Virus record (IMG/VR): IMGVR_UViG_2529292836_000010
Source: a virus
Lineage: Duplodnaviria; Heunggongvirae; Uroviricota; Caudoviricetes
DNA: 15,856 nucleotides
Strand: one strand, 5' to 3'
The position numbers were made by a program, and so were the translations under genes. The notes below the pieces were generated by a model. The model did no database searches. It was given only the letters and a program-made list of their open reading frames with translations, and was not told where the DNA came from. Positions 11,277 to 15,600 of this stretch are shown piece by piece (positions within the stretch are counted from its first letter, which is position 1; every line of letters begins with the position of its first letter).

Positions 11277-12028
11277 ATGACACAGACAGAATCAGCGATT
11301 CTGGCGCACGCCCGGCGATGTGCGCCAGCGGAGTCGTGCGGCTTCGTGGTAAGCACGCCGGAGGGGGAAAGATATTTCCCCTGCGTGAATATCTCCGGTG
11401 AGCCGGAGGCGTATTTCCGTATGTCGCCGGAAGACTGGCTGCAGGCAGAAATGCAGGGTGAGATTGTGGCGCTGGTCCACAGCCACCCCGGTGGTCTGCC
11501 CTGGCTGAGTGAGGCTGACCGGCGGCTGCAGGTGCAGAGTGATTTGCCGTGGTGGCTGGTCTGCCGGGGTGAGATTCATAAATTCCGCTGTGTGCCGCAT
11601 CTCACCGGGCGGCGCTTTGAGCACGGGGTGACGGACTGTTACACGCTGTTCCGGGATGCTTACCATCTGGCGGGGATTGAGATGCCGGATTTTCATCGTG
11701 AGGATGACTGGTGGCGTACGGTCAGAATCTCTATCTGGATAATCTGGAGGCACAGGGCTTATCAGGTGCCGTTGTCAGCGGCGCAGCCGGGCGATGTGCT
11801 GCTGTGCTGTTTTGGTTCATCGGTGCCGAATCATGCCGCTATTTACTGCGGCGACGGCGAGCTGCTGCACCATATTCCTGAACAACTGAGAAACGAGAGA
11901 GGTATACCGACAAATGGCAGCGACGCACACACTCCCTCTGGCGTCACCGGGCATGGCCGCATCTGCCTTTACGGGGATTTGCAACGATTTGGCCGCCGCA
12001 TCGACCTTCGTGTGAAAACGGGGGCTGA
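11277..12028 (+). pseudogene. K: Tail tip assembly protein K-like (JAMM/MPN plus NlpC/P60 domains), apparently frame-disrupted
   Basis: JAMM motif E..HSHPGGLPWLSEAD and NlpC/P60 Cys/His contexts (GVTDCYTLF, NHAAIY) are present. Around 11715-11765 the ORF frame reads the atypical WRTVRISIWIIWRHRA, whereas an alternate frame gives the lambda-like GQNLYLDNLEAQGL. Downstream, the frame-0 ORF no longer stops at the expected K end (frame-2 TGA at 12026-12028) but reads on into I. Confidence 0.7.
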
Positions 12029-12556
12029 AGCCATCCGGGCGCTGGCCACACAGCTCCCGGCGTTTCGTCAGAAACTGAATGACGGCTGGTATCAGGTGCG
12101 CATTGCCGGGCGTGATGCAGGCGAAACCGAATTATCTGCCCGTCTTAATGAGCCGCTGGCAAATGGTGCCGTGATCCATATCGTGCCGCGTCTGGCGGGA
12201 GCTAAAAGTGGCGGTGTGTTTCAGGTGGTGCTGGGGGCGGCGTTGATTGCGGTGGCATGGTGGAACCCTGTGGGCTGGCTGGGTGCCGCGGCTGTATCGG
12301 GATGTATGCGCAGGGGCCAGTATGATCCTGGGGGTGTGGCGCAGATGCTGGCACCGAAAGCCAGGACGCCACGGCAGCCAGTACAGATAACGGCAAACAG
12401 AACACCTATTTCTCCTCACTGGATAACATGGTTGCCCAGGGCAATGTTCTGCCGGTTCTGTACGGTGAAATGCGCGTGGGGTCGCGGGTGGTTTCTCAGG
12501 AGATCAGCACGGCAGACGAAGGGGATGGTGGTCAGGTTGTGGTGATTGGTCGCTGA
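11914..12556 (+). pseudogene. I: Tail tip assembly protein I-like, split over three reading frames
   Basis: ATG 11914 gives MAATHTLPLASPGMA, matching the recalled gpI N-terminus, then a stop after 33 codons. The next gpI block (RICLYGDLQRFGRRIDLRVKTGAEAIRALATQLPAFRQ...GGVAQMLAPKARTPR) is in frame 0, fused to the K ORF. The last block (DNGKQNTYFSSLDNMVAQGNVLPVLYGEMRVGSRVVSQEISTADEGDGGQVVVIGR*) is in frame 2 and ends at 12554-12556. Confidence 0.7.
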
Positions 12557-12574
12557 TGAAAAACGTTTATGTGA

Positions 12575-12594
12575 AACCGCCTCCGGGCGGTTTT
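12575..12594 (+). terminator. Terminator-like hairpin in the I-J intergenic region
   Basis: 7-bp stem AACCGCC (12575-12581), loop TCCG, GGCGGTT (12586-12592), followed by a T-rich tract (ttttgtcgttt). It lies in a 59-nt gap before the J SD (GGAG at 12604-12607). Confidence 0.3.
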
Positions 12595-12615
12595 GTCGTT
12601 TATGGAGCGTGACGA

Positions 12616-15600
12616 ATGGGTAAAGGCAGCAGTAAGGGGCATACCCCGCGCGAAGCGAAGGACAACCTGAAGTCCACGCAGCTGCTGAGTGTGATCGATG
12701 CCATCAGCGAAGGGCCGGTTGAAGGTCCGGTGGATGGATTAAAAAGCGTGCTGCTGAACAGTACGCCGGTGCTGGACAGTGAGGGGAATACCAATATCTC
12801 CGGCGTCACGGTGGTGTTCCGGGCCGGTGAGCAGGAGCAGACACCGCCGGAGGGATTTGAATCCTCCGGCTCCGAGACGGTGCTGGGTACGGAAGTGAAA
12901 TACGACACGCCGATCACCCGGACCATCACGTCGGCAAACATCGACCGTCTGCGTTTTACCTTCGGCGTGCAGGCACTGGTGGAAACCACCTCAAAGGGGG
13001 ACAGGAATCCGTCGGAAGTCCGCCTGCTGGTTCAGATCCAGCGTAATGGTGGCTGGGTGACGGAAAAAGACATCACCATTAAGGGCAAAACCACCTCGCA
13101 GTATCTGGCCTCGGTGGTGGTGGGTAACCTGCCGCCGCGCCCGTTCAATATCGGATGCGCAGGATGACGCCGGACAGCACCACAGACCAGCTGCAGAACA
13201 AAACGCTCTGGTCGTCATACACCGAAATCATCGATGTGAAACAGGCTACCCGAACACGGCACTGGTCGGCGTCAGGTGGATCGGAGCAGTTCGGCAGCCA
13301 GCAGGTGAGCGTAATTATCATCTCGCGGGCGCATTCTGCAGGTGCCGTCGAACTATAACCCGCAGACGCGCAATACAGCGGTATCTGGGACGGAACGTTA
13401 ACCGCATACAGCAACAACATGGCCTGGTGTCTGTGGGATATGCTGACCCACCGCGCTACGGCATGGGGAAACGTCTTGGTGCGGCGGATGTGGACAAATG
13501 GGCGCTGTATGTCATCGGCCAGTACTGCGACCAGTCAGTGCCGGACGGCTTTGGCGGCACGGAGCCGCGCATCACCTGTAATGCGTACCTGACCACACAG
13601 CGCAAGGCGTGGGATGTGCTCAGTGATTTCTGCTCGGCGATGCGCTGTATGCCGGTATGGAACGGGCAGACGCTGACGTTCGTGCAGGACCGACCGTCGG
13701 ATAAGGTGTGGGCCTATAACCGCAGTAATGTGGTGATGCCGGATGATGGCGCGCCGTTCCGCTACAGCTTCAGCGCCCTGAAAGACCGCCATAATGCCGT
13801 TGAGGTGAACTGGATTGACCCGGATAACGGCTGGGAGACGGCGACAGAGCTTGTTGAAGATACGCAGGCCATTGCCCGTTACGGTCGTAACGTCACGAAG
13901 ATGGATGCCTTTGGCTGTACCAGCCGGGGGCAGGCACACCGCGCCGGGCTGTGGCTGATTAAAACAGAACTGCTGGAAACGCAGACCGTGGACTTCAGCG
14001 TGGGTGCGAAGGGCTTCGCCATGTACCGGGCGATGTCATTGAAATCTGCGATGATGACTATGCCGGTATCAGCACCGGCGGGCGCGTGCTGGCGGTAAAC
14101 AGCCAGACCCGGACGCTGACGCTCGACCGTGAAATCACGCTGCCATCTCCGGACCACGCTGATAAGCCTGGTTGACGGAGGGATCCGGTCAGCGTGGAGG
14201 TCAGTCCTCACCGACGGCGTGAAGGTGAAAGTGAGCCGGTTCCTGACGGCGTTGCGATACAGCGTGTGGGGGCTGAAGCTGCCGACGCTGCGCCAGCGCC
14301 TGTTCCGCTGGTGAGTATCCGTGAGAACGAGACGGACGTATGCCATCACGCGTGCAGCATGTACCGGAAAAGAAGCCATCGTGGATAACGGGGCGCACTT
14401 TGACGGACCAGAGCGGCACGGTGAATGGTGTCACGCCGCCAGCGTGCAGACTGACGCCGAAGTCACGCAGACAGCGGGGAATACAGGTGCTGGCGTGGGA
14501 CACCCGAAGGTGGTGAAGGGGTGAGCTTTGCTCGCTGACCGTCAGCGGAGACGGCAGTGAGCGCTGGTCAGCACGGCCCGGACGACGGAAACCACATACC
14601 GCTTCACGCAACTGGCGCTGGGGAACTACAGGCTGACAGTCCGGGCGGTAAATGCCTGGGGACAGCAGGGCGATCCGGCGTCGGTATCGTTCCGGATTGC
14701 CGCACCGGCAGCACCGTCGAGGATTGAGCTGACGCCGGGCTATTTTCAGATAACCGCCACGCCGCATCTTGCGTTTATGACCCGACGGTACAGTTTGAGT
14801 TCTGGTTCTCGGAAAAGCGGATTACCGATATCAGGCAGGTTGAAACCACAGCCCGCTATCTTGGTACGGCGCTGTACTGGATAGCCGCCAGTATCAATAT
14901 CAAACCGGGCCATGATTATTATTTTTACGTTCGCAGTGTGAACACCGTTGGCAAATCGGCATTCGTGGAGGCTGTCGGTCGGGCGAGCGATGATGCGGAA
15001 GGTTACCTGGATTTTTTCAAAGGAGAAATCGGGAAAACACATCTGGCCCAGGAGTTGTGGACGCAGATTGATAACGGTCAGCTTGCGCCTGACCTGGCTG
15101 AAATCAGGACGTCCATTACGGATGTCAGCAATGAAATCACGCAGACCGTCAATAAGAAACTGGAAGACCAGAGTGCGGCAATTCAGCAGATACAGAAGGT
15201 TCAGGTTGATACAAATAATAACCTGAACAGCATGTGGGCTGTGAAGCTGCAGCAGATGCAGGACGGACGCCTTTATATCGCGGGTATTGGTGCCGGTATT
15301 GAGAACACCCCTGACGGCATGCAGAGTCAGGTGCTGCTGGCGGCAGACAGGATTGCGATGATTAATCCTGCGAATGGCAACACAAAGCCGATGTTTGTTG
15401 GGCAGGGCGATCAGATATTCATGAACGACGTGTTCCTGAAACGCCTGACGGCTCCCACCATTACCAGCGGCGGTAATCCTCCGGTATTTTCCCTGACACC
15501 GGACGGGCGGCTGACGGCGAAAAATGCCGATATCAGCGGTAACGTGAATGCGAACTCCGGGACGCTCAACAACGTCACGATTAACGAGAACTGTCGGGTT

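Follow-up and report, generated by a model that had tools for sequence, protein, structure and literature searches.

The stretch of DNA studied here (the window, 15,856 bp) is the entire contig AQEB01000008.1 of Escherichia coli strain 2731150 (assembly GCA_000354895.2). According to gene calls and Pfam, it is the morphogenesis region of a lambdoid prophage, read on the + strand, and its tail-tip genes K, I and J are broken as deposited by 61 single-base deletions. These deletions are very probably not mutations but errors of the consensus step of the assembly, arising from repeat copies of the region that were assembled together.

The K-I-J region and its deletions

Strain 2731150 is an enterotoxigenic E. 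coli (ETEC) from Bangladesh of sequence type (ST) 3931, with the accession AQEB00000000 and the reads SRR446754 (Sahl et al. 2017, supplementary table, PMC5469772). The genomes of that study were sequenced using an Illumina HiSeq 2000, in reads of 100 bp, and Celera Assembler was used for their assembly, with SPAdes 3.6 being run by the authors as well (Sahl et al. 2017, PMC5469772), and the contig comes from such a short-read draft assembly, of 2013. The 422-aa open reading frame (ORF) in which K is fused with I (protein EMW90665.1 of E. coli 2731150) was found only on AQEB01000008.1. Both contig ends lie in repeats, the 5' end inside the insertion sequence (IS) ISCro1 and the 3' end in a stretch of J that is near-identical between the two prophage copies described below, as is typical of repeat-induced breaks with 100-bp reads.

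Two prophages of the complete genome of E. coli NCCP 13717, a strain related to 2731150, were used for comparison, i.e., copy A (L001), the closest intact relative of the window, and a second prophage of the same strain, copy B (L003); a third copy in that genome was not located. The two prophages are represented by the stretches 2999411-3004239 and 2843020-2847848 of NZ_CP115984.1. In addition, 5,426 complete E. coli genomes were searched, of which 4,663 had a match to 11200-15856. The whole window was colinear with copy A (L001 802-16718); the alignment had 56 mismatches and no insertions, and at 61 sites a single base was deleted from the window. All of the deletions lay within 11717-14772, in K, I, J and the I-J spacer, with none in the 11.7 kb before and no indel in the last 1,084 bases, after 14772 to the contig end. 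The first-pass annotation, which had placed the disruptions in K, I and the 5' part of J and described the 3' region of J as clean, was right on both points; its count of at least about 15 frame changes was about fourfold too low. Most deletions fell into four blocks (Table 1), and one each occurred at 12565, 14006 and 14772. A single deletion is common to K and I, in their overlap, and one falls in the I-J spacer.

Short ORFs with GpJ domains follow in series 3' of the 422-aa ORF, and J is thus in pieces; it is also truncated by the contig end about 190 nt ahead of its stop. The total of 51 deletions in J is a multiple of three. The last 1,084 bases and the J start codon are therefore in one frame again, presumably by chance (1 in 3).

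Table 1. Coordinates of the features of the window; positions are those of the window unless L001 is named
Feature	Position	Strand	Remarks
ISCro1 (IS66-family) end	1..224	+	100% identical to ISCro1 of ETEC-2265; end of transposase coding sequence at L001 995 (window 194)
Terminase large-subunit gene remnant, last 84 nt, cut by IS	217..300	+	Pseudogene annotated at L001 1018-1101
13 intact head and tail genes	297..11271	+	No indel and 3 mismatches relative to L001; gene lengths as in L001
Gene K (JAB/NlpC-P60 tail-tip protein), 5 one-base deletions	11277..12015	+	From alignment to L001
False 422-aa K-I fusion ORF, K running on into I	11277-12545	+	Prok-JAB, NLPC_P60 and Lambda_tail_I domains
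Gene I (Lambda_tail_I), 5 one-base deletions	11914..12556	+	From alignment to L001
Gene J (central tail fibre/tip attachment protein), 51 one-base deletions	12616..15856	+	From alignment to L001
Deletion block 1, 5 deletions	11717..11957		Every variable site deleted in 11717-11890
Deletion block 2, 4 deletions	12301..12368		All on A/B-variable sites
Fine, site-by-site alternation of B and A alleles	12406..13003		One deletion, at 12565
Deletion block 3, 11 deletions	13151..13450		All A/B-variable sites deleted
13 B alleles in a row, no deletion	13523..13909		Enclosing 13460-14000 is 99.6% identical to copy B
Deletion block 4, 38 deletions	14148..14563		Essentially all A/B-variable sites deleted
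Mostly B alleles	14596..14826		One deletion, at 14772
Clean, mostly A-type J 3' part	15090..15856		Ends in a stretch of about 270 bp with one A/B difference

In the closest complete genomes K, I and J were intact and annotated. The K-I-J stretch matched thousands of E. coli prophages, and the best phage record reached 95.9%; the highest identity to the 4,657 bases of 11200-15856 among the complete genomes was 97.6%. None of the top matches listed shared the deletions, their spans being 4,698-4,718 bases compared with 4,651-4,657 in the window, and those of the top full-length matches 4,717-4,718 bases.

Every event was a one-base deletion and a few were located in short runs (T4 to T3 at 12565, G5 to G4 at 14521), as could be caused by platform indel errors, i.e., homopolymer miscalls like those of 454, Ion Torrent or nanopore sequencing in a low-coverage patch. 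However, the indels were not enriched in runs, since singletons made up 33 of the 61 deleted bases (54%), as compared with 57% of all bases in the region. Moreover, the data are Illumina HiSeq 100-bp reads and the events follow polymorphism between prophage copies, as presented below; a sister study of the same centre reported, for that study only, 300-bp inserts and an average coverage of >200x. Platform error is therefore an extremely improbable cause. The homopolymer context proposed in the first-pass annotation fails on the same run lengths, and its three examples (13151, 11957 and 14772) turned out to be lambdoid allele differences (A/C, A/G and G/T/C, respectively) rather than contracted runs.

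Deletions and differences between prophage copies

In copy B the genes L, K, I and J are intact, whereas the head module is unrelated and of the HK97 type. The K-I-J segments of copies A and B, both intact, were 96% identical in a gap-free alignment. In a three-way MAFFT alignment, built blind to the hypothesis, 38 of the 61 deletions fell exactly on A/B-variable columns, which were 4.5% of all columns (Fisher p ~1e-37), and 52 were at most one column from such a site. When gaps were allowed to slide to equivalent positions in a dynamic-programming alignment, 53 of the 61 were on A/B-variable sites and no insertion was needed. As a control, the variable-site labels were shifted by 2-11 columns, after which only 2-13 deletions coincided with variable sites. 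The anomalies are thus located at the differences between copies.

Eight deletions were off the A/B sites. Lambda and phage vB_EcoS-640R1 were taken as stand-ins for a third allele, and one or the other had another base at seven of these positions, which fits a third co-resident copy; NCCP 13717 has the K-I-J segment in three places (two of them fetched here). By this proxy, more than one similar copy of the segment would be present in the genome, and the median for E. coli is three per genome, with a maximum of 15. Bases matching neither A nor B were limited to two in K-I-J, at 11443 (A vs G) and 12559 (A vs C), which may be alleles of the third copy or private changes. The G at 11443 was also seen in strains 602354 and ETEC-2265.

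The same dependence appeared at the codon level. Codon position 3 was hit by 48 of the 60 genic deletions (80%, p = 1.5e-13), a bias explained by the fact that the alleles of a conserved gene differ at third positions.

The bases called between the deletions followed the two copies as well. All 89 A/B-variable sites in 10584-11537 carried the A allele and 297..11271 was purely copy A, while the best match to 13460-14000 among the complete genomes was the second prophage of NCCP 13717. Some further blocks in K-I-J carried A alleles. In 100-column bins of the deletion blocks, 4/4, 5/5, 5/5, 5/5, 3/3, 9/9 and 8/10 variable sites were deleted, and the A allele was called at none of the variable sites in those bins. 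The consensus is a chimera of the copies. Deletions placed in this way at inter-copy sites are beyond any mutational process, and a vote among mixed reads fits them.

The chimera itself could be partly real, produced by gene conversion or recombination between co-resident prophages, with only the deletions being artefactual. This would agree with the known mosaicism of lambdoid prophages, with the cleanness and coherence of the B blocks at 13523-13909 and 14596-14826, and with the match of other complete genomes to 12400-13140 at 99.1%. However, deletion blocks flank the B blocks directly, the alleles alternate site by site in 12406-13003 as expected from a vote among mixed reads, and another Celera draft, described below, is deleted where the window has B alleles. 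A partly real mosaic is accordingly unlikely, though it deserves to be kept in mind. A variant of it, in which the switching between A and B reflects real, recent gene conversion and at least some of the deletions, at former mismatch sites, come from faulty heteroduplex processing, would require a mutational mechanism that is not known to have been described and has an almost negligible probability.

Origin of the deletions

The anomaly was met again in a second assembly from the same pipeline. AQAD01000092.1 of E. coli P0302293.6 also encodes the window's 183-aa J fragment; this contig belongs to a Celera draft of the same centre, from a different patient series, and has a different prophage backbone. 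The sibling P0302293_3 from the same patient is of ST155, as compared with ST3931 for 2731150 (Sahl et al. 2017, table, PMC5469772). The L-K-I-J region of AQAD01000092.1 had 81 deletions, 1 insertion and 54 mismatches relative to L001. Of these deletions, 24 were at columns identical to those of window deletions and 32 were on sites variable between copies A and B of NCCP 13717 (5% of columns). At L001 14345, 14347, 14353, 14359, 14371, 14458, 14677 and 14731, AQAD01000092.1 is deleted and the window has B alleles. The same sites were thus handled differently in the two assemblies, which points to the behaviour of the consensus caller and not to inheritance. On AQAD01000092.1 (7957-13362), L is split into 188 and 51 aa, J is in many pieces and the contig ends near the J 3' end.

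Genuine inactivation, in which K, I and J of a cryptic prophage really gained single-base deletions, has to be weighed against these results. Fragmented structural genes and a terminase lost to an IS are features that the window shares with cryptic-prophage pseudogenes of E. coli; selection on the tail genes could be relaxed after the loss of the terminase to the IS66-family insertion, and some deletions are common to the contig of a second strain. However, decay would be blind to the other prophage copy, yet 53-60 of the 61 deletions are on its variable sites and 80% are at codon position 3. Genuine decay mixes substitutions, insertions, deletions and rearrangements, whereas the window has only one-base deletions on paralogue-variable wobble sites, with no insertions, no larger indels and only two private substitutions in 4.6 kb. 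The lesions were therefore neither of mixed type nor independent of codon position and paralogue differences. Inheritance of the lesions by close relatives was not seen among the matches listed, and the genes are intact in the closest complete genomes. Similarly, the second contig, although sharing 24 deletions, has a different backbone and is deleted exactly where the window has B alleles. Real decay of these genes is hence scarcely credible.

Conflicting columns in a read stack could likewise arise if the sequenced DNA came from two strains or variants that differ in their alleles of one prophage, and collapsed repeats can be mimicked by samples that are heterogeneous (Phillippy et al. 2008, PMC2397507). 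However, NCCP 13717 alone holds both allele sets, as separate prophages, E. coli genomes have a median of three copies of the segment, and no sign of mixing was found in the 11 kb upstream. Such a mixture is very unlikely.

The preferred explanation, collapse of prophage copies in the consensus, would proceed as follows. Strain 2731150 would have at least two, probably three, lambdoid prophages with K-I-J about 96% identical. Celera Assembler, an overlap-layout-consensus program, would not have kept these copies apart with 100-bp reads but would have stacked them in one multiple alignment. Where the reads of one copy were dominant, the base of that copy would be called, giving blocks of A and blocks of B; where the reads conflicted strongly, a gap would be called and the base of the variable site lost. 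Most differences between the copies are synonymous and at codon position 3, and the outcome would therefore be a series of frame-shifting one-base deletions. The upstream genes would be clean because copy A is without a close paralogue there; upstream of K, copies A and B are about 9% divergent in the L gene and have unrelated head modules. The two or three prophages of NCCP 13717 are probably present in strain 2731150 too, because there are 3 mismatches in 11.4 kb, the IS/terminase junction is the same, and the B alleles are best matched by copy B of NCCP 13717. We infer that gaps were emitted at strongly conflicting columns in the consensus step and that this was the software step responsible.

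It was reported that near-identical repeat copies are readily co-assembled and that the conflicts then seen in the read alignment are correlated and sit in fixed columns (Phillippy, Schatz and Pop 2008, PMC2397507). The window resembles such a collapsed repeat, or "correlated SNP" (single-nucleotide polymorphism) mis-assembly, in its conflicts at fixed columns, in a contig ending in repeats and in its chimeric consensus. It differs in that the conflicts led to dropped bases, and so to frameshifts, and not just to an erroneous or ambiguous base call, and in that the collapse was partial, with the copy-A flank being kept, rather than producing simply a high-coverage repeat contig.

Several points weigh against this explanation. 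The case is built on assembled sequences, with excess depth and a lack of reads supporting the deletions as predictions, and the second and third copies were taken from the related genome NCCP 13717. The deletion at 12565 (T4 to T3) lies beside two polymorphic sites but on neither of them. Moreover, the terminase had already been lost to ISCro1, so that real decay of the tail genes would be biologically conceivable. For the copy-B contig of the same assembly, an exact look-up of J fragments returned the 221-aa fragment only on AQEB01000008.1, and the 88-aa ORF was not on record. A literature search returned no specific published account of Celera Assembler calling gaps where columns conflict. 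The Celera base caller allows "-" as a call, perhaps as the default at likelihood underflow with very high, conflicting coverage, and this is not relied on here.

The first-pass annotation had left the choice between a low-quality consensus patch in a repeat shared by several prophages and genuine inactivation of the tail-tip genes. The former is favored by the deletions on inter-copy sites and by the repeat-bounded Celera/Illumina contig, and the latter is not upheld.

Remaining parts of the prophage and significance

Positions 1-11442 differed from L001 at three bases and had no indel. The 13 intact genes are, in order, DUF6148, portal, ClpP-protease/major-capsid fusion, DUF2190, Gifsy-2-like, Z, U, tube protein, G, T, tape measure, M and L; the Phage_cement_2 Pfam family is on record between the ClpP-protease/major-capsid fusion and the Gifsy-2-family protein. 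The head module (297-3989) is not lambda-like, with a DUF6148 gene, a Phage_portal_2 portal and a ClpP-protease/major-capsid fusion of 675 aa. It had been proposed from the sequence that 14 full-length genes run from W to L. Intactness holds for these 13 genes, which have the lengths of L001, but not for the 5' end, where the contig starts in ISCro1 and only 84 nt of the terminase gene are left; the lambda names used for 297-3989 are positional analogies only.

Within the first 11.4 kb the window departs from NCCP 13717 only at 3002, 6963 and 8602, in each case with G where NCCP 13717 has T. T is also found at these positions in 602354 and ETEC-2265, and the changes from T to G are private to the window and stand beside G residues. 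Judged from this sequence context, they may reflect a systematic error of the Illumina reads or of the consensus and not true SNPs.

The junction of ISCro1 with the terminase gene is the same in NCCP 13717, while ETEC-2265 has ISCro1 elsewhere in the terminase gene. In strain 602354 the terminase gene is intact. Having lost its terminase, the prophage is defective whatever the state of K-I-J.

Lambda (14276-18903) has the same gene order L-K-I-J and the same K/I overlap as the window, in which the Pfam domains Prok-JAB, NLPC_P60, Lambda_tail_I, FNIII-A_GpJ, Phage-tail_3, Ig_J, Phage_Tail_Tip and Ig_GpJ_C were found as in lambda. The segment is a lambda-type tail-tip module in which K, I and J are colinear with their annotated counterparts in L001, L002, L003 and lambda, and the Lambda-type phage isolates among the matches listed matched its first 92% at a nucleotide identity of about 94-95%. 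Unlike lambda, the window has a different head module, and its genes as deposited are frameshifted 61 times. The genes themselves are K, I and J of the ordinary lambda type; the anomaly is a known class of mis-assembly with an unusually clean signature, and no biological feature is involved.

The artefact ORFs have been deposited. The 422-aa ORF (window 11277-12545) is EMW90665.1, named "bacteriophage lambda tail assembly I family protein" and forming a one-member cluster, and the 183-aa J fragment (window 12616-13167) is EMW90666.1, which equals ENE31647.1.

Based on these results, false frameshifts are now present in public protein databases as genes. At least one further draft from the centre and assembler concerned has the same defect, and their output comprised at least 94 ETEC drafts in the study of strain 2731150 and 208 in the sister study. 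At repeats common to several prophages, scores of prophage intactness, pseudogene counts, the assignment of host range from tail fibres and pangenomes are misled by such errors. As a diagnostic, one-base deletions that fall on wobble positions and on paralogue-variable sites mark a consensus artefact and not the decay of a prophage.

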